DNA from: Patescibacteria group bacterium
Lineage (GTDB): Bacteria; Patescibacteriota; Minisyncoccia; Phycocordibacterales; PALSA-1337
NCBI GenBank assembly: GCA_038065395.1
Contig: JBBTRB010000004.1
Location: 70,042 to 134,041 of the forward strand
Direction: 5' to 3'
DNA: 64,000 nucleotides
Made by a program: the position numbers and the translations under genes
In this document: positions 4,406 through 50,106 of the stretch, piece after piece
How the letters are laid out: every line of letters starts with the position of its first letter
Numbering within the stretch: position 1 is the first letter of the stretch
Notes under the pieces: model-generated
Database searches by the model: none
The model's input: only the letters and a program-made list of their open reading frames with translations
What the model was told of the DNA's origin: nothing

Positions 4406-4479
4406 AACATACCCTCGGCAGGACCTCCTTCGACAAGATTAATACAATGGTATTCTTGTTGAAATAAAAAGTCAAGTGA

Positions 4480-4550
4480 TGGTGGAGGTGAGGGGAATCG
4501 AACCCCTATGTTTATCTTGTCGAAGGATAACATCCGGCCTTGGCACCCCC
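4480..4550 (-). ncRNA. tRNA-like small RNA, copy 1 (71 nt)
   Basis: 7-bp acceptor stem GGGGGUG/CACCUCC. T-arm AGGGG-UUCGAUU-CCCCU. Discriminator A and encoded CCA. The body is 67 nt before the discriminator, about 5 nt too short for a cloverleaf. It is preceded by a conserved leader hairpin and by motif copy E. Confidence 0.6.
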
Positions 4551-4726: not shown

Positions 4727-5941
4727 ATGGCAAAATCAAAAAAGACGACCAAATCAAAGCCGGCACGTGCTCGCAAGCCTGTGGCAAAATCCGCATCCAA
4801 GCCCAAGAAAAAGACAAAAGGCGTCTCGTCTCGCAAAGCTGCACCCAAGGTCAAAGCCGACCAGAAGAGTTTCGAATACAAGGCGACCAAACTCATCCAA
4901 AAGGGGCGTGATCGTGGTTTCGTCACGTATGACGAGATCCTCAAAGAGTTCCCACAGATCGAGAATGACATCGTCTTCCTCGATGAGCTCTATTCCAAAC
5001 TTTCTACTGCCAACGTCGACGTCCTCGAAGGGGGGGGCCTCCTCGAAGTCGAAGACCTGACCGTCAAGAAACCTTCGGCATATGGAACACGCCACAGTGC
5101 TGACTCTGCCTACGACTCTATCCAGATGTATCTCAAAGAGATCGGTCAATATCCGCTCATTACCGCCGCCAATGAAAAGGAGCTCGCTCGTCGTATCCAA
5201 GCAGGGGATCTCGAAGCCAAGAACCTCCTTGCAAAGGCCAACCTGCGTCTCGTGGTGTCTATCGCCAAGAAATACGTCGGTCGTAGTCCGGATCTGACAC
5301 TCCTCGACCTGATCCAAGAAGGTAACTTGGGACTTTTCCGTGCGGTAGACAAGTTCGACTGGACCAAAGGCTACAAGTTCTCGACTTATGCTACCTGGTG
5401 GATCCGTCAGGCCATCACCCGCGCATTGGCTGACCAGTCTCGCACTATCCGTGTACCGGTACACATGGTAGAGACCATCGCAAAATACAAACAGATGGTA
5501 CGACGTCTCACCCAAGACCTCGGTCGCGAGCCTTTGCCCGACGAGATCGCTACTGAGATGGGTATGGATGTTAGCAAGATCTACCAGATCGAAAAGATCG
5601 AGCAAGACGTCGTGTCGCTCGAAAGTCCTGTTGGAGACGACAGTGAAGATGGCAAGTCCACTCTCCAAGATTTCGTGGCAGATGACAAGATCCTTTCCCC
5701 TGATCAGGAGTCATCACATCGTATCCTCCGCGACCACGTCAACACGATCCTCGACGATCTCTCAGAGAAAGAACGCAAGATCCTCGAGATGCGTCATGGT
5801 CTCAATGACGGTATCACACATACCCTGGAAGAAGTCGGTCGTGAATTTGGAGTCACTCGCGAACGTATCCGTCAGATCGAAGCCAAGGCTCATGAAAAGA
5901 TCCGTCAGCACGACAATATCGATAGGCTCAAGAACTACTAA
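4727..5941 (+). CDS. rpoD: RNA polymerase sigma factor RpoD (sigma-70)
   Basis: Region 2 ([40 protein letters not shown]), region 3 and region 4 ([22 protein letters not shown]). Lys-rich N-terminus. Confidence 0.95.
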
Positions 5942-43417: not shown

Positions 43418-43485
43418 ATAGAAAGTATAACAAAGACATTTAAAAGAAAAAACGCCCGTTAGGACGTTTTCTCATTTTTCATTTG

Positions 43486-43794
43486 CTCCGGAGACAGGAT
43501 TCGAACCTGTGACCAATCGCTTACGTATACTCCACTATTACTAATGGTACGGACTATATCATTCCCATATTCCACGGTCAGTGGAAGTTAGGGAAGAGGC
43601 GCTTCGTCCGATGCAACATCGGACTACTCCCCGAAGGGATAGTCTCTACACCTTCCCCGACATGATGTCGGGGCTTGGCTCGGTATTGCCCATGGGGATG
43701 GGTTTCACCGAATTCACCTCTTTTTCGATCCGTCTTTCAACGAAAAGCTGCAATAAGTTTACAGGCGACTGCTCTACCGCTGAGCTACTCCGGA
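43486..43794 (-). tRNA. tRNA-Asn(GUU) interrupted by a 237-nt group I intron between anticodon-loop positions 35 and 36
   Basis: 5' exon 43761-43794: UCCGGAG-UA-GCUC-AGCGGUA-GAGC-A-GUCGC-CUGU. 3' exon 43486-43523: UAA-GCGAU-UGGUC-ACAGG-UUCGAAU-CCUGU-CUCCGGA-G. The spliced product is close to E. coli tRNA-Asn, with the identical CUGUUAA loop and G73. The intron starts after U. Its internal guide GCAG pairs with exon CUGU (U.G at the splice site). It has AGACUA...UAGUC P7-like strands and ends in G. Confidence 0.75.
43524..43760 (-). other. Group I intron (no internal ORF)
   Basis: See the tRNA-Asn entry. The P1 helix, ~237-nt size and terminal G fit a tRNA-type group I intron. The track ORFs inside it are spurious. 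Confidence 0.65.
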
Positions 43795-44039
43795 ATGTAT
43801 TTTTTAAGGAACTCCTTTCCGTATCCACTCTTCAATCTTTTCTCTTCTTGCCTTGCCGCAGACCTATCCTTTCCTACTAACTTACAATATATCATTTTCC
43901 ACGGTCTGTATGGTCGAGTAGAAGTTACTTCACCGGCATTATGTTCGATAAGCCTTTTCTCTGGGTGATAACTCATGCCGACATATATCCTGTGGTCTAC
44001 TTCGCTGAGTAGTGCATATACGTAGTACATCTTCTCCAT
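43785..44039 (-). CDS. Small GIY-YIG nuclease-domain protein (84 aa); its stop codon overlaps the first 10 nt of the tRNA-Asn 5' exon
   Basis: MEKMYYVYALLSEVDHRIYVGMSYHPEKRLIEHNAGEVTSTRPYRPW... shows the GIY-(10-11 aa)-YVG pattern plus the conserved R and E/N. The start is placed at the internal Met; the upstream part of the track ORF overlaps the duplicated exon. Confidence 0.55.
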   Translation of the reverse strand: MEKMYYVYALLSEVDHRIYVGMSYHPEKRLIEHNAGEVTSTRPYRPWKMIYCKLVGKDRSAARQEEKRLKSGYGKEFLKKYIPE

Positions 44040-44050
44040 GAGATAGAGTT

Positions 44051-44112
44051 TATCACAGGCAACTGCTCCCTGCCTGCCGGCAGGCAGGTACCGCTGAGCT
44101 ATCCCGGAATAG
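44051..44112 (-). repeat. Degenerate duplicate of the tRNA-Asn 5' exon and exon-intron junction, carrying a 20-nt perfect palindrome insertion (cctgcctgccggcaggcagg)
   Basis: Minus-strand reading: UCCGGGAUAGCUCAGCGGUA[CCUGCCUGCCGGCAGGCAGG]GAGCAGUUGCCUGU-GAU-AAAC. The true gene reads UCCGGAGUAGCUCAGCGGUAGAGCAGUCGCCUGU|AAAC. Confidence 0.6.
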
Positions 44113-44171
44113 GTCTCTATCTCAATGCGAACATGAGAAAATGTACCACATATGGTACCGTAAATCAAAAC

Positions 44172-44396
44172 ATGTACATACACGTCAGAGTTATTGCCGA
44201 TGCACGGAAAGAAGAGGTTACGCATACCTCGAAGGATCATATGGTCATACGAGTGACAGAGAAGGCCGAACGCAATCAGGCCAACAAAAGAATTCTGGAA
44301 ATACTTCGAAGTTTATACCCGAATACCTTCATCCGTATTATCAATGGTCACCATTCACCATCGAAACTCATATCAGTCGATACGAAAGATGAGTAG
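44172..44396 (+). CDS. DUF167 (YggU-like) family protein
   Basis: IHVRVIADARKEEV.....MVIRVTEKAERNQANKRILEILRSLYPNTFIRIINGHHSPSKLISV matches v.v.a.P.A..n.....l.v.v.a.P..GkAN..l...La..l......i.iv.G..sr.K.i.i. Confidence 0.5.
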   Translation: MYIHVRVIADARKEEVTHTSKDHMVIRVTEKAERNQANKRILEILRSLYPNTFIRIINGHHSPSKLISVDTKDE

Positions 44397-44451
44397 TGGG
44401 CTGGTTCCCGATGCGATATAATAAGAGTATTAGTAATTAACCAATACTTCT

Positions 44452-44820
44452 ATGAACATCAACATCAAGACCACCGCCCTTACCATGACCGATGCGATAT
44501 CCGAGTATATAGCGAAACGACTCGAAAAGGTTACCAAGCTCATTGGAGAAGATCCTTCTGTTCAGTGTGATGTTGAACTTGCACGTACGACCAGCCATCA
44601 CAACAAGGGTGATATTTTCAAGGCTGAGATCCATATCGTCGGTGCAGGCAAGAATCTCTACGCCAGTAGCGAGAAGGAAGACCTGTACACTGCCATCGAT
44701 GATGTTCAGAATGAGATCGTACGAGAACTCACTACCGACAAAGAGAAGAAGCAGTCGATGATCCGCAAAGGAGGTGCTCGCATGAAGGCGATGATGAAGG
44801 GGCTCTGGCCTTGGAAGTAG
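44452..44820 (+). CDS. hpf: Ribosome hibernation-promoting factor / RaiA family protein
   Basis: MNINIKTTALTMTDAISEYIAKRLEKVTKL...FKAEIHIV...EDLYTAIDDVQNEIVREL is an S30EA-family pattern. Confidence 0.8.
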   Translation: MNINIKTTALTMTDAISEYIAKRLEKVTKLIGEDPSVQCDVELARTTSHHNKGDIFKAEIHIVGAGKNLYASSEKEDLYTAIDDVQNEIVRELTTDKEKKQSMIRKGGARMKAMMKGLWPWK

Positions 44821-44980
44821 ACATGTATGAGTGATCAACCCTTTTTCAATTTTTCAGGGAAACAGATCATCAACCAGTGGTTGGGAATATCACTGATATC
44901 GTTGATGTGTTTCTGGACGGTACTCTACTATGTCGTGAACAAAGCTCAAGATGTCGGACAGAGTCTCGTCGTTGGTACTA

Positions 44981-45850
44981 CTATCTCGACGAAGCATTGA
45001 GAGCTCCGTACCCACGGACGAAGTCTGCATAGGGCATAGCAGTGCCACCTTCAGGAATAACACGCTCAATTGCGAGTGTGTTATTCGTATATGAAGCCTC
45101 AGTGATCTTGACTCGGATCTGTGTGCCGTTGTGTGTGTGCATGACATAGGCAACTGGCCATGTATTGTAAGCTTGGATCTTACGGAAGTTCTTGTATGCG
45201 TCGTCAGTAAGATCGAGCAGTCCGTCTTCTTTGTGAATCTTTTTTGTAAAAGTCGCTGATGGGTGTTCTTGTTCTTGTTCAGTGATCTTGCCCTCTATCC
45301 AGAGTGGTAGGGTATCTGCCAAGAGATTGGCCCCCTCGGTTGCCATCAGAGTTTCGAATGCTTCATAGGTTGGCCAGGTGTCGATGGATATTCCTTTGTG
45401 AGCAAGGAGTGGTCCATGGTCCATCTTGTCATCGATGCGCATGATCGTGATGCCGGTATTTTTTGTATCTTCGAGCATCGCGGATTGAAGAGGAGATGCT
45501 CCGCGGTATTGAGGCAAGAGAGAAGGGTGAATATTGAGAGTCTTGTGAGGAGGGATGTCTATGACTGCAGAAGGGAGGATTTTGCCATATGAAGCAACAA
45601 TGAAGACGTCACTTGCTATACGCTTCAATAGTTCAATGGTTTCATTGTTGAATTGTTCAGGTATTTCTACAGGGATAGAATGTTCGACTGCCCAGGTCTT
45701 CACTACGTTAGGAGTCAGAACCATCTTCCTGCCTTGAGGCTTGTCTGGAGTAGTGACGATGAGGGTAGGGACGAGGCCTCTCTGTGTCAGTGTGTCGAGC
45801 ACGATGACTGAGAAGCGTGATGAACCGAAGTATGTAAATGGGATGTTCAT
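44981..45850 (-). CDS. fmt: Methionyl-tRNA formyltransferase
   Basis: HPSLLPQYRGASPLQSAML matches the Fmt HASLLPRWRGAAPIQ motif. N-terminal formyl-transferase fold plus C-terminal domain. Operon with def. Confidence 0.85.
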   Translation of the reverse strand: MNIPFTYFGSSRFSVIVLDTLTQRGLVPTLIVTTPDKPQGRKMVLTPNVVKTWAVEHSIPVEIPEQFNNETIELLKRIASDVFIVASYGKILPSAVIDIPPHKTLNIHPSLLPQYRGASPLQSAMLEDTKNTGITIMRIDDKMDHGPLLAHKGISIDTWPTYEAFETLMATEGANLLADTLPLWIEGKITEQEQEHPSATFTKKIHKEDGLLDLTDDAYKNFRKIQAYNTWPVAYVMHTHNGTQIRVKITEASYTNNTLAIERVIPEGGTAMPYADFVRGYGALNASSR

Positions 45851-45855
45851 AGTAT

Positions 45856-45879
45856 GTCATCCCCGCTCAGGCGGGGATC
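45856..45879. repeat. REP-like GC hairpin (gtcatccccgctcaggcggggatc)
   Basis: Same family as 14915-14940 and the termini of the element at 53179-53364. Confidence 0.55.
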
Positions 45880-45891
45880 TGCGGGTTAGTT

Positions 45892-46425
45892 TTATTTCTT
45901 TTTCTTCAGTTCCTCGACCTCCGCCTCCTCCATTTCCCATATGTCAGTTGCACGATCTATGAAAAGTATTCCTTCGAGATGGTCGACCTCGTGCTGGAAT
46001 ATCTGTGCCAGGAGGCCACTGGCACCACGTTCGATCTTCTCGCCTTTCTCATTGAGGGCACGGACAGTGGCACGGACAGAACGAGGGACTTTGCCATAGA
46101 GCCAACGAACAGAGAGACAACCTTCTTCGACGACGTTCTTCTCGCGAGACAGACGAGTGATAGTTGGGTTGATGAATACGAGATGTCCTGCTTCGCCCGT
46201 GTATTCAGGATCTGCTTGTCTGAGAAGAGTCCCAGAGACGATGAAGATGCGCAGCGGTACACCGATCTGAGGTGCGGCGATCGCGATGCCATCGTGTTGC
46301 GAGTCGAGGGCAGTGATCATGTTAGCGAGGATTTTCGCCAGTTTGGCTGTGCCAATATCTGAAGAGGCCACATCTTTGGCCTTGGCATGGAGTACCGGGT
46401 TGTCGCGTTGCACGATGTCGATCAT
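45892..46425 (-). CDS. def: Peptide deformylase
   Basis: GIAIAAPQIG, EGCLSV and QHEVDHLEG motifs. The start is placed at Met 46425 (MIDIVQRD...). Confidence 0.85.
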   Translation of the reverse strand: MIDIVQRDNPVLHAKAKDVASSDIGTAKLAKILANMITALDSQHDGIAIAAPQIGVPLRIFIVSGTLLRQADPEYTGEAGHLVFINPTITRLSREKNVVEEGCLSVRWLYGKVPRSVRATVRALNEKGEKIERGASGLLAQIFQHEVDHLEGILFIDRATDIWEMEEAEVEELKKKK

Positions 46426-46571
46426 GGAATAACTGTAACAGGAGAAACAAAAACAGTAAATAGTAACTAGAAAAATGTAACTTGTAACTAGAGATGTGTC
46501 TCTGCGATTTTCCAATTACTAATTACCAATCCCTAGTTACATTTTTCTAGTTACCAGTTACTAATCTCCTA
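46426..46571. repeat. Intergenic inverted-repeat element (gtaactagaaaaatgtaacttgtaactag ... ctagttacatttttctagttaccagttac)
   Basis: About 28-bp arms with a ~45-nt spacer, containing CTAATTACCAATC. It is related in motif content to 12442-12532, 51472-51515 and 53940-54012. Confidence 0.55.
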
Positions 46572-48482
46572 TTACAAAAGTGATTCCGGATTCACCTTGA
46601 CCTTGACCGAAGGAGGGAGAGAGCGGAGTTTTGCTACCAGAGTAGAGTTTGGCCAAGTGTGAGGTTCGATCTTGATCAGTCCATGGATGATCGAGTTGCC
46701 ACGAATGCTGGCAGTGAATGCAGGGAAGATGTCGATCGTGTAGGGGTCGAGCAGTTTTTGGATCTCGGCCATCTCGTGGGCGATCGGGTCTTTCTTGCCT
46801 TCGATACTGATCTTGATGAGTGTGCCACAGGGTGGATAGCGGAACTGCCGACGTTCTTCGAGAGTAGCACGGTAGAAGTCACTGAGGTTGCCCTTGAGAC
46901 CGTACTCGAATACTTTTTCTTCAGCACGACGCGTCTGTACCAATATCGAACGCGTGGCGATATTGCGCAGACGGATCAGCGTGTACATGATCTTTTCTTG
47001 TATACGGAAGTCTGGCAAGGCGAAGAGTGCATCCATCGATACGATCGCTACATGGTCGATCTTGTCAGGAAGATAGGCTAGTGCCATCTCGGTGCCGAGC
47101 AGGATGCTGCCCGGTCGCATGATGAAGTCGTTGTAGACGGCATGAGTTTTCTCACTGGTATCAGTTGTGTCACTGTCTATCTTGAAGATATCGATATCAG
47201 GGAACCGAGTACGGATCTCTTCTTCGACGCGTTGGATACCGATGCCGAGCGGGGTGAGTCTCCAGCCGCCACAGACACGACACATCTCGGCTGCACTGCG
47301 TCGTTCGCCACACGCATGACACATGAAGAAATTCCTGCCAGAATCTTTGGACGTATGGAGTACAACTGGTGCCGAACACTGCGTACAGGCGACGATAGTC
47401 TCGCAGTCGGCGCAGACGGTCGACGGTGAGATTCCTCGCCGAGTAGTAAGGATGAAGAGATGAGTGCTCTCTTGCTTACTTCTGGTGATCAGGGTTTCGA
47501 GCTCAGGAGACAAGACGCGGAAATTGTTCTCTGCCCCTTTGTACACCTTCATATCGACCAGAGTTTCTTGGGCAGTAGAGATCGAGCGCCACTTGAAAGG
47601 CGAGCCTTCATAGATGTCGTGTTCGGCGAGGCGATAGAGTGTCTCGGTGCGCAGGAGACTGTCAGATATATGTACGGTACGTTGCTCTGCTCGATGATAG
47701 ACTTCGAGTGCATGTCGTATGTCAATATATGGTGCTCGTTGGGTGACCCATCCTCGGCCATGCTCACGTTCGATGATGACTGTCTGTATGTCAGATCGAG
47801 GGAGGAGCAGGAATGATCCGGTGGCGATGATGACGACCGGATGAATACTCTCGGCGATTGCCTTCCATGTATCGAGCGTCTTCTTGGGAGACAAGTCTCC
47901 ATGAAGGACGAAGATATACCCCTCAATTCCTTTTTCGAGAGTAGTGAAGAGTCGCTCAGCATCTTCGATCGTCGATACATAGAGAGCAACCGACTGTGCC
48001 TGAGCGAACTTCTGGCGGATCAGACTACGCCAAGAACTATGTCTGTCGGCAGTGTCGCCCTGTACTGCATATGTGTCACCGGTACGCCGAGAAGATGTGG
48101 AAACAGTCTTGGTAGGTTGAGAGGAGAGCGGAGGGGGTATCTTGTGGGCGTTGGTCAGGAGCACCTCCGCAACGAGAGCGTCGATGACAGATCCGACGGT
48201 AGTAGCATAGTGGTCTGCCAAGAGGCTACATGAATCCAGGAATGAGACCGGGAAGAATGCTGTAGCCTTGACCTTGCCGAGTTTGCGGATCTCGAAGGGG
48301 GCGTTCTTGATCTCGCTCTTGATATCTTCGGCAGGACGTATCGCGATGATGATGGCATATATGGTCTTGGAGCGCAGTGGCACCGATACGACCGCTCCGA
48401 CGGGGAGTTCTGTCGAAGTGAAGTACGAGAGGGTCGGACTGAGCTTCGACCTGCTCAAAGGTATGACAGTGATGATATACAT
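46572..48482 (-). CDS. priA: Primosomal protein N' (PriA) homolog with degenerate Walker A and DExH motifs
   Basis: PriA N-terminal 3'-DNA-binding domain and Cys-rich zinc region (CADCETIVACTQCSAPVV...CHACGERRSAAEMCRVCGG) are intact. The motif I position reads YAVQGDTADRHS where GvTGSGKT is expected. Motif II reads VIIEREHG where viDEEHd is expected. Confidence 0.75.
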   Translation of the reverse strand: MYIITVIPLSRSKLSPTLSYFTSTELPVGAVVSVPLRSKTIYAIIIAIRPAEDIKSEIKNAPFEIRKLGKVKATAFFPVSFLDSCSLLADHYATTVGSVIDALVAEVLLTNAHKIPPPLSSQPTKTVSTSSRRTGDTYAVQGDTADRHSSWRSLIRQKFAQAQSVALYVSTIEDAERLFTTLEKGIEGYIFVLHGDLSPKKTLDTWKAIAESIHPVVIIATGSFLLLPRSDIQTVIIEREHGRGWVTQRAPYIDIRHALEVYHRAEQRTVHISDSLLRTETLYRLAEHDIYEGSPFKWRSISTAQETLVDMKVYKGAENNFRVLSPELETLITRSKQESTHLFILTTRRGISPSTVCADCETIVACTQCSAPVVLHTSKDSGRNFFMCHACGERRSAAEMCRVCGGWRLTPLGIGIQRVEEEIRTRFPDIDIFKIDSDTTDTSEKTHAVYNDFIMRPGSILLGTEMALAYLPDKIDHVAIVSMDALFALPDFRIQEKIMYTLIRLRNIATRSILVQTRRAEEKVFEYGLKGNLSDFYRATLEERRQFRYPPCGTLIKISIEGKKDPIAHEMAEIQKLLDPYTIDIFPAFTASIRGNSIIHGLIKIEPHTWPNSTLVAKLRSLPPSVKVKVNPESLL

Positions 48483-48539
48483 ATATATAGTTATACCGCC
48501 TCTGCTCGTATTTGTGAAATTGCCTTGTAACGATTAGAA

Positions 48540-48790
48540 TGGGAAAGGTAGGCAACTCAAGAAAAAATCATTTCTCTCAAATCCAAAGGTCAAGACAATT
48601 CCGTGATTCTTACACACCCTCTTGTTTTGATAGAAATGATTTTTTCTTGAGTTGCCTACCAGAAGGTCCAGAATGAGAAGCCTACAGGAATATTTCTGGA
48701 CTCAAAACAAGAGGGTGTGTAAAGTTTTCGAAGTCGCCTCAACCTTTGGATTTGAGGTAAGAAATATTCCTGTAGGGTTCTCATAGATTT
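48540..48790. repeat. Highly structured divergent-promoter region with four interleaved inverted-repeat pairs
   Basis: A ggtaggcaactcaagaaaaaatcatttct(c/a)tcaaa pairs with A' at 48624-48660. B tccaaaggt pairs with acctttgga. C cttacacaccctcttgttttga pairs with tcaaaacaagagggtgtgtaag. D agaagcctacaggaatatttct pairs with agaaatattcctgtaggg. The order is A B C A' D C' B' D'. Confidence 0.6.
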
Positions 48791-48795
48791 AGTAT

Positions 48796-50106
48796 ATGTC
48801 CAACAACACCAAAGAAACATTCGTCATACAGGGTCTCAATGGCAAGCAGACACTTTCTGGCTCGATCGCTGTGCATGGAGCAAAAAACGCCGCGCTCAAG
48901 GCTATGGCTGCGGCAGTGCTGTTCGATGGGCCAGTGACACTCGAGAATATTCCTGACAACGCTGACGTCGGTGTGATGGGCGAAGTACTATCCAAGCTCG
49001 GTGCCTCCGTACAAAGAACTTCAGAACACTCATTCATTATTGATCCTTCCTCTATCGCCACTACCGATATCGATGCCGAGCTCGCTCAGAATATGCGTTC
49101 GTCGGTCGTGCTTACCGGGCCGCTCCTCGCGCGCTTCGGTAAGGTCTCATTCCCTGCACCTGGTGGTTGTGTCATCGGTACTCGCCCGATCGATCTGTTC
49201 GTCGAAGGGTACAAGAAGATGGGTGCAACCGTGAACATCATCGATGATGCCACTTATGACATCTCAGTTGCCTCAGGTGTTGCTGCTACAGAAATCTTTT
49301 TTAATATTCAGTCAGTCGGTGGTACCGAGACGCTGATGATGGCTGCCGTGTTGGGCACAGGCACGACGATCCTTCGCAACTGTGCGATGGAGCCGGAGAT
49401 CGTCAATGTCGCCGAGTGGCTCAATGCCGCCGGTGCAGATATCCAGGGTGTTGGTACAACCACGATTATCATTACAGGGACCGGAGGGAAGTTGCTTGCC
49501 TCAAAGGTGTCTTATCGTGCGATCCCTGACCGTATCGAAGCTGCAAGTTTCCTGATCATGGGAGCATTGTCTGCACGCGAGATCACTATTGAAAACTGTG
49601 AACCACGACATATGGAGGCCGTCATTCATCTCTTGCAAGGATCTGGTGTCGAGATGAAGATCGGTAAGGATCGCGTCACTGTCAAAGGACTCTCCGGTCC
49701 ACGACCATTCAATGTACGCACTCACGAATATCCAGGTTTCCCGACAGACATCCAGGCACCGATCGTCACGTATCTGACTCAGGCAACGGGTGAGTCGACC
49801 ATTTTCGAAACTATTTTTGAGGGAAGATTCAAGTACGTCGAAGATCTTTCCCAGATGGGCGCATCTATCACGGTCATGAACCCTCGTGAGATCCTGATCA
49901 AAGGTGCAACGCCCCTGCGACAGTTACCCGAAAAAGACGAGCTCCGTGCCCATGATATCCGTGCTGGCTTTGCGGTCGTTCTCGCAGCTATTATCGGTAC
50001 AGGAACTTTCACTATCCATAACATCCATCTGATCGATAGGGGATATGAGAGGCTGGAGGAGAGACTTTCGAAGCTGGGGGTTGGTATTGTGAGGAAGGTG
50101 GTTTAA
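48796..50106 (+). CDS. murA: UDP-N-acetylglucosamine 1-carboxyvinyltransferase
   Basis: EPSP-synthase-like fold. KNAALK, catalytic-loop Cys region (PGGCVIGTRPID) and full length. Confidence 0.9.
   Translation: MSNNTKETFVIQGLNGKQTLSGSIAVHGAKNAALKAMAAAVLFDGPVTLENIPDNADVGVMGEVLSKLGASVQRTSEHSFIIDPSSIATTDIDAELAQNMRSSVVLTGPLLARFGKVSFPAPGGCVIGTRPIDLFVEGYKKMGATVNIIDDATYDISVASGVAATEIFFNIQSVGGTETLMMAAVLGTGTTILRNCAMEPEIVNVAEWLNAAGADIQGVGTTTIIITGTGGKLLASKVSYRAIPDRIEAASFLIMGALSAREITIENCEPRHMEAVIHLLQGSGVEMKIGKDRVTVKGLSGPRPFNVRTHEYPGFPTDIQAPIVTYLTQATGESTIFETIFEGRFKYVEDLSQMGASITVMNPREILIKGATPLRQLPEKDELRAHDIRAGFAVVLAAIIGTGTFTIHNIHLIDRGYERLEERLSKLGVGIVRKVV

Follow-up and report, generated by a model that had tools for sequence, protein, structure and literature searches.

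The locus described here raises the question of whether a transfer RNA (tRNA) gene that is broken within its anticodon can still give a functional product, and by what means. It lies on the minus strand of a stretch of 64,000 nucleotides (nt) from a Patescibacteria group bacterium (assembly GCA_038065395.1, contig JBBTRB010000004.1, positions 70,042 to 134,041), which is called the window below and is numbered from its first letter. At 43794..43486 the anticodon loop of a tRNA-Asn(GUU) gene is interrupted between U35 and U36 by a 237-nt intron. We propose, with a probability of about 0.93, that this gene is functional and that ordinary two-step group I self-splicing would restore its CUGUUAA loop.

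ARAGORN in its default mode called zero tRNAs in the whole window. In intron mode the program reported tRNA-Asn(gtt) at c[43485,43794] and put a 237-nt intron at position 35. Both this call and the sequence itself bear out exactly the coordinates and boundaries given by an earlier note on this DNA, in which the gene was described as split after U35 by 237 nt. The joined exons were called tRNA-Asn(gtt), a canonical 72-nt tRNA with a regular cloverleaf, the CUGUUAA loop, U1-A72 and G73, in agreement with the reconstruction in that note. Pairing is perfect in the acceptor, D, anticodon and T stems. The anticodon stem pairs across the intron, and in relatives all four stems of the GUU cloverleaf stay paired with compensatory changes. 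U1-A72 and G73, which we take to fit the identity of bacterial tRNA-Asn, count against a tRNA-Thr. CCA is absent from the encoded 3′ end. The same locus was seen again in independent assemblies (L001 and L002 at 100%, L287 at 99.4%), and one independent assembly of it is of Hainich groundwater origin.

A local Rfam scan matched the interruption to the group I intron family (RF00028, Intron_gpI) at 43531..43770 on the minus strand, with 61.6 bits against a gathering score of 50, an E-value of 3.7e-15 and coverage of the full model (positions 1-253), which makes the check that the earlier note had proposed positive. Folded alone, the intron has a minimum free energy (MFE) of -84.6 kcal/mol (z = -3.85 vs. 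200 shuffles), and both the match and the fold are far above chance level. The features by which group I introns are recognized could be found one by one: a U.G pair in P1, a terminal G and a P3-P8 core with the P3/P7 pseudoknot. That the guide GCAG pairs with exon CUGU, with U.G at the splice site, had been claimed before and is upheld by the Rfam alignment; the four pairs (CG, UA, GC, UG) are invariant in 42 of 42 relatives. The intron also ends in G, as had been stated, and its P1 loop comprises 5 nt only, with no open reading frame (ORF). All core positions that are invariant in the family are intact.

Relatives were collected by a scan of one genome per species with the core motif TGCAGCTT...GGTGAATTCNGNGAANCC. 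It returned at least 119 stretches. The intron family is thus present in the genomes of at least 119 species, which by their record titles come from well over ten different major lineages of bacteria. Among the listed relatives the host labels include Patescibacteria (~21) and Nitrospirota (~25), besides Acidobacteriota/Aminicenantes, Binatia, Desulfobacterota-like bacteria, Clostridia, Bacteroidota/Ignavibacteriota, Elusimicrobia, Bipolaricaulota and others. ARAGORN called 100 of the 119 listed relatives tRNA-Asn(gtt) with the same insertion site; the remaining ones are mostly cut by contig ends or carry known Thr/Tyr mis-calls (Thr in 4). The junctions read CTGT|intron...G|TAA in all 63 listed relatives with an intron of at most 300 nt.

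The P1-P10 helix model was evaluated for covariation on a 42-sequence alignment (A1), with 500 column shuffles and with pairing partners slid by 1-3 columns. In the model 81.2% of cells are paired, as compared with 66.5% in the shuffles (none of the 500 reaches 81.2%) and 33-44% after sliding, and 526 cells have changes on both sides of a pair. RNAalifold, run without the model, recovers the four tRNA stems together with P1, P2, P3, P4, P5, P6, P8 and P9, and compensatory changes occur in 43 of its 68 predicted pairs. Covariation is seen in P2, P3, P4, P6a, P9 and the base of P8; P7 is present but invariant, and hence uninformative in this respect.

The introns at positions 35/36 of tRNA-Asn are an already described and experimentally validated class, known from the same phylum. 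Williams (2020; 10.1101/2020.01.27.920355) extended the classical tRNA intron classes from four to 21, and the tRNA-Asn 35/36 intron is the Asn.4Ug type of that work, as cited by Nakagawa et al. (mSystems 2026; PMC13011429). The earlier note had not counted this insertion site among the commonly described ones, a view that the reports of it in both papers correct. In 95 complete Patescibacteria genomes Nakagawa et al. counted 15 tRNA-Asn(GUU) genes that have an intron at 35/36; Patescibacteria, in which such introns are enriched, account for 19 of the 28 introns at 35/36, and nearly all are IA. They demonstrated precise, GTP (guanosine triphosphate)-dependent self-splicing in vitro at 35/36 for the Patescibacteria tRNA-Asn intron of GCA_016700035.1, whose exons were not ligated once its terminal G had been changed to C (PMC13011429).

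Sequence, structure and family membership of the window intron are direct observations, and its splicing would proceed by analogy with that homologue tested in vitro. The internal guide UUGCAG would pair with exon CUGU and the adjoining AA to form P1, with the U.G wobble at the 5′ splice site, and a free guanosine held in P7 would attack after U35. The terminal G at 43524 would next move into the guanosine site, and P10 would form between CUUA in the P1 loop and UAAG, the first bases of exon 2, to hold the latter in place. The 3′-OH set free on U35 would then join U36, giving the CUGUUAA loop and a 72-nt tRNA that would still require 5′ processing and CCA addition.

Some results weigh against this account. 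An Rfam gathering scan of the full 64-kb window with default filters reported no match; as the local scan detected the intron, this miss is a filter effect. P10 amounts to 4 base pairs (bp) only, is weakly conserved and is paired in 35-40% of relatives. Distal P5, P7.2 and P8 differ between relatives and align poorly, so that their pairing rests mainly on the single-sequence fold. The coordinates of the exons, the intron elements and the neighbouring features are collected in Table 1.

Table 1. Features of the split tRNA-Asn gene, its intron and the flanking DNA in window coordinates.
Feature	Position	Strand	Description	Basis
Exon 1	43794..43761	-	34 nt, tRNA positions 1-35, ends ...CCUGU; UCCGGAGUAGCUCAGCGGUAGAGCAGUCGCCUGU	ARAGORN intron mode and spliced-sequence call
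Intron	43760..43524	-	237 nt, starts AAACUU (AAACUUAUUGCAGC...), ends ...AUACG (...GUGGAGUAUACG); no ORF	
Exon 2	43523..43486	-	38 nt, starts UAAGCG, U36 to discriminator G73; UAAGCGAUUGGUCACAGGUUCGAAUCCUGUCUCCGGAG	
P1	43748..43764	-	exon CUGU and intron AA paired with internal guide UUGCAG; U 43761.G 43751 at 5′ splice site	Rfam alignment
P10 guide CUUA, in P1 loop	43754..43757	-	predicted to complement exon 2 start UAAG (43523..43520)	sequence reading
P2 hairpin	43729..43744	-	6 bp, GAAA loop	compensatory changes at 6/6 pairs; 98.8% of cells paired
P3 5′ strand	43715..43722	-	partner 43601..43594	Rfam alignment; 3 pairs with compensatory changes, 87.5% paired
P4-P5	43680..43711	-	J4/5 AAA, J5/4 CAA	P4 100% paired, 2 covarying pairs; MFE fold
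P6/P6a	43650..43679	-		P6 invariant; P6a compensatory changes at 7/7 pairs, 90% paired
P7 5′ strand	43640..43646	-	G-AGACUA, bulged A; predicted guanosine-binding helix; partner 43556..43551	invariant in 42/42 relatives
P7.1 and P7.2 hairpins	43606..43639	-	P7.1 = UCCC-UUCG-GGGA; between P7 and P3 3′ strand	
P3 3′ strand	43594..43601	-	partner 43722..43715	
P8	43564..43593	-		3 basal pairs 99% paired, 2 covarying; MFE fold
J8/7 (AAUGAUA) and P7 3′ strand (UAGUCC)	43551..43563	-	GAUAUAGUCC / GAGAUAGUCC	invariant or near-invariant across relatives
P9 hairpin	43532..43547	-	6 bp, GUAA loop	compensatory changes at 5/6 pairs
Terminal guanosine (omega-G)	43524	-	before 3′ splice site	G in all 63 short-intron relatives
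Terminator-like hairpin and T run	43446..43473	-	13 nt beyond tRNA 3′ end; putative terminator	consensus scan
GIY-YIG ORF	44039..43785	-	84 amino acids (aa)	Pfam PF01541, E 1e-11
Exon 1 copy	44108..44055	-	upstream of GIY-YIG ORF; split after GGUA (D loop) by palindrome	
Perfect 20-nt palindrome	44069-44088		CCTGCCTGCCGGCAGGCAGG; inside exon 1 copy	

Five more distant, intron-bearing Patescibacteria loci (L066, L018, L088, L052, L062; 39-55% protein identity) have the order priA-def-fmt-tRNA-Asn(intron) in common with the window, one of them also including murA. Together with the similarity of intron and exons, this synteny points to a Patescibacteria (candidate phyla radiation, CPR) genome, Parcubacteria/Paceibacteria-like, probably that of a groundwater bacterium. 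A metagenome scan for the intronless form of the tRNA-Asn anticodon arm returned at least 120 contigs. The best protein-level matches to the window (43486..50106) among those listed are L147, L188, L143 and L207, which have the order murA / priA-def-fmt-ORF-tRNA-Asn and identities of 50-62% for priA (the L207 contig stops short of it), 60-66% for def and 48-56% for fmt. In these four the tRNA-Asn is uninterrupted and the GIY-YIG cassette that flanks the window gene is absent. Because the closest listed syntenic relatives are intronless while more distant Patescibacteria carry the intron, its presence at this one locus appears sporadic among close relatives, which implies gain or precise loss. 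For the same reason the intron would have been gained or lost over short evolutionary timescales, even though it has no endonuclease gene.

The cassette adjoins the 5′ side of the split gene. Its ORF encodes a small GIY-YIG protein and ends within the first 10 nt of tRNA-Asn, so that the 5′ end of the tRNA encodes the last codons and the stop. The exon 1 copy upstream of the ORF is followed by ~10 bases that possibly match the intron start. L287, an independent assembly, confirms the layout of exon 1 copy, palindrome and GIY-YIG ORF. The Rfam scan of the cassette (43780..44450) gave no match. A 17-nt match between intron P8 and the GIY-YIG ORF (family D3) had suggested a tandem duplication of the whole split gene, and this candidate was rejected: alignment of the upstream copy stops ~10 bases beyond exon 1.

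In several settings a small GIY-YIG homologue immediately precedes a complete tRNA of the same strand, and the two often overlap. This arrangement was found for 18 of the 28 GIY-YIG ORFs in tRNA-Asn loci, most of them at intronless alleles. Among ten contexts fetched by protein similarity alone, eight have the GIY-YIG gene before tRNA-Lys, tRNA-Leu(UAA), tRNA-Leu(CAG) or tRNA-Asn; in the ninth (L251) a tRNA 5′ end follows the ORF and the contig then ends, and in the tenth (L243) the ORF comes after tRNA-Arg(CCU) instead. In most contexts the ORF is preceded by a 5′-half copy of the local tRNA with an identical or one-mismatch palindrome, usually in the D loop. The layout recurs at L114, L165, L205, L242, L244-L246, L248-L251 and L283, that is, at tRNA-Asn (with or without the intron), tRNA-Lys, tRNA-Leu(UAA) and tRNA-Leu(CAG), and the depositor names of the NCBI records concerned are Patescibacteria and Bacteroidota.

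The palindrome was found 42 times in 35 viral-contig stretches from IMG/VR (L252-L286), in varied contexts and often flanked by direct repeats of 7-14 nt. One of these cases has the tRNA and GIY-YIG layout, and two lie in the variable region of tRNA-Met (L253, L276). Two one-mismatch copies were also seen within a tRNA-Lys pseudogene (L249:420-510). Judged by such contexts, the 20-nt palindrome behaves like a tiny insertion element.

Such a neighbour invites the idea that the free-standing GIY-YIG protein mobilises the ORF-less intron in trans (collaborative homing), which would be compatible with self-splicing of the tRNA-Asn intron. The ORF abuts the tRNA 5′ end, the degenerate exon 1 copy upstream of it possibly includes the first intron bases, and the closest syntenic relatives among the matches listed have neither the intron nor the ORF. 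Yet the same GIY-YIG family adjoins intronless tRNA-Asn and also tRNA-Lys and tRNA-Leu genes, and it is no commoner at intron-bearing alleles (~9 of 119 listed loci) than at intronless ones (~17 of 120 listed). Because the nuclease family is equally present at intronless tRNAs of several isotypes, we consider collaborative homing unsupported and unlikely.

Somewhat less doubtful, but still tentative, is the suggestion that the split tRNA-Asn could be one half of a composite selfish locus, whose 5′ side would hold an apparently undescribed element that targets tRNA genes. Its parts are the palindrome-broken copy of the tRNA 5′ half, the 84-aa GIY-YIG gene and the intact tRNA that encodes the last codons of the nuclease. 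No published description of the GIY-YIG and palindrome layout was found in the searchable literature, and of the whole locus it is this adjacent cassette that may be new. The nearest known analogue is SegB of phage T4, reportedly a homing endonuclease of the GIY-YIG kind whose gene lies among clustered tRNA genes (PMC2330249). If the cassette is a homing element that regenerates its target tRNA, it would represent a new route for endonuclease genes into essential RNA genes without an intron, and it might interact with the intron at the same tRNA gene.

The split gene could also be a decaying pseudogene with an inactive intron, its function being taken over by another, intronless tRNA-Asn elsewhere in the genome. 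The window covers 64 kb, outside of which a second copy could lie, and metagenomes hold many alleles of this tRNA that have no intron. Against decay, every family-invariant core position is intact, as are the U.G pair and the terminal G, and the four tRNA stems are perfect. In addition, the Saccharimonadia rows of Table S2 in PMC13011429 have 0 or 1 tRNA-Asn gene per genome, and it is rare for one genome to have both an intron-bearing and an intronless copy for the same anticodon (PMC13011429). A pseudogene is therefore, in our estimate, very improbable, and the functional, self-splicing gene remains the preferred reading; if it is the sole tRNA-Asn gene in the genome, splicing would be essential.

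A further alternative concerns the classification of the intron and not its function. The earlier note had assigned it to the tRNA-Leu/fMet/Arg type, with AGACUA paired to the UAGUC directly after the UUCG hairpin and that hairpin as P8-like, as would be the case for a classical IC3 tRNA intron. AGACUA and GAUAUAGUC do look like the IC3 consensus strands of Rfam, and UAGUC does come after the UUCG hairpin. However, group I topology demands that the P3 3′ strand lie between both P7 strands, whereas P3′ (43601..43594) comes after the proximal UAGUC. The proximal UAGUC is, moreover, unconserved (UACAU, UAGCU and UACUU in relatives); what stays invariant is the distal AUAGUCC, at 43556..43551 and 70 nt further on, and this forms the true 3′ strand of P7. 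By conservation and topology the UUCG hairpin is P7.1 and not P8, and the P7/P8 assignment of the note was rejected on both grounds.

P7.1 and P7.2 form a 36-nt insertion relative to the Rfam consensus and fold as two hairpins in the MFE structure, and P7.1 covaries in relatives. Two such additional hairpins between P7 and the P3 3′ strand are a hallmark of IA introns. In IC3 introns P7 leads straight into P3′ without P7.1/P7.2 and there is homology to the classical tRNA introns; neither was found here. Because the UUCG hairpin is P7.1, with P7.2 following between P7 and the P3 3′ strand, we assign the intron from its sequence to the IA type, not to the IC3 type of tRNA-Leu/fMet/Arg. Its Nitrospirota and Patescibacteria homologues are classed IA1 (Table S5, PMC13011429), and the IA1 label is taken from that classification of homologues. 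To the IC3 alternative we attach hardly any credence.

The least credible alternative, on which we place next to no weight, is that the splice sites lie two bases off and the product is tRNA-Thr, a frequent ARAGORN/tFind mis-call for tRNA-Asn 35/36 introns: PMC13011429 documents Asn(GUU) 35/36 mis-called as Thr(UGU) 33/34 and ARAGORN gave Thr for 4 listed relatives, but with the window sequence ...AUACG|UAAGCG a two-base shift would leave an intron ending in A and would turn the U.G of the 5′ splice site into a Watson-Crick U-A. ARAGORN itself calls the window gene Asn. This exon assignment with a different anticodon, a possibility for which the earlier note had allowed, was rejected, and Asn stands.

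We then set the tRNA-Asn intron beside known systems. It agrees with the Asn.4Ug/IA family in its tRNA-Asn(GUU) host, its 35/36 site and the homology of its core (alignments A1 and A2; Tables S3 and S5, PMC13011429). With the in vitro-tested intron of GCA_016700035.1 it shares host tRNA, site, U.G pair, terminal G, phylum and the lack of an ORF, as well as the core motifs (GCAGC guide, GGUGAAUU, GAGCCAAGC, AGAGACUA, GAUAGUCC), and the two could be aligned through every core element. They differ in that identity is 61% over aligned columns and the peripheral P5, P6 and P7.x vary in length and sequence; the window tRNA has no encoded CCA, and the window has the GIY-YIG cassette directly upstream. 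The closest among the listed relatives are L057 (Ca. Nomurabacteria) and L100 (Ca. Paceibacterota), with 77% identity over the split gene, the same helices and near-identical exons, and in L057, too, a GIY-YIG ORF stands immediately upstream. Unlike in the window, their introns measure 233 and 220 nt (vs. 237 nt), and P2, P6a, P8 and P9 differ in sequence, with compensatory changes.

The tRNA-Asn 35/36 introns of Nitrospirota and other phyla (e.g., GCF_900169565.1, IA1) have the same site and core, but a different sequence pattern between P7 and P3′ in the alignment, with 64% identity. The classical IC3 tRNA introns resemble the window intron in group I chemistry, an anticodon-loop site, small size and a P1 that includes anticodon-loop bases. 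Those of tRNA-Leu(UAA) 34/35 (Nostoc/Anabaena), tRNA-fMet 33/34, tRNA-Arg(CCU) 36/37 and tRNA-Ile(CAU) (Azoarcus) differ from it in insertion position and subgroup, and there is no homology to them beyond the universal core. Longer members of the tRNA-Asn family (~540-660 nt) share core and site, in contrast to which the window intron has a P1 loop of 5 nt and is ORF-less. HNH endonuclease genes have been found in long Patescibacteria introns (PMC13011429).

As to the relatives themselves, introns of 540-660 nt make up ~30% of the fetched loci (among them L009, L013, L019, L021, L022, L027, L035, L036, L045, L084 and L120), with extra DNA between the 5′ splice site and the guide, in the P1 loop. 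One listed contig, L030 (CAMBFS010000088.1), is labelled as a Klebsiella pneumoniae metagenome-assembled genome and carries a tRNA-Asn intron; because its junctions are near-identical to those of the Deltaproteobacteria-labelled L105, the contig is probably mis-binned.

Default finders are blind to the split tRNA-Asn, and a genome of this kind would consequently be scored as being without an essential tRNA. The annotation problem is the same as in PMC13011429, where tRNA-Asn 35/36 genes were missed or mis-called by standard tools. The detection misses encountered here, in default ARAGORN and in the full-window Rfam scan despite a score 11 bits above threshold, bear on estimates of genome completeness.

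In intron mode ARAGORN made a second call in the window, a tRNA-Thr at c[4480,5522] with a 948-nt intron. It was rejected, as its 5′ half lies inside a plus-strand 404-aa ORF (4727..5941) and a group I signal is absent. A 71-nt tRNA-like element is located at 4480..4550 on the minus strand, with a perfect GGGGGUG/CACCUCC acceptor stem, G3.U70, a 3′ ACCA, a UUCGAC motif and a T arm; its D arm is vestigial only, and the messenger RNA-like domain is absent. Rfam scored it as transfer-messenger RNA (tmRNA) with 35.5 bits, under the gathering score of 47, and ARAGORN with relaxed settings called it tRNA-Ser(cga) in a shifted register. An exact 14-nt complement of its anticodon-arm region (ATCTTGTCGAAGGA) was found ~75 nt downstream, at 4426..4439.

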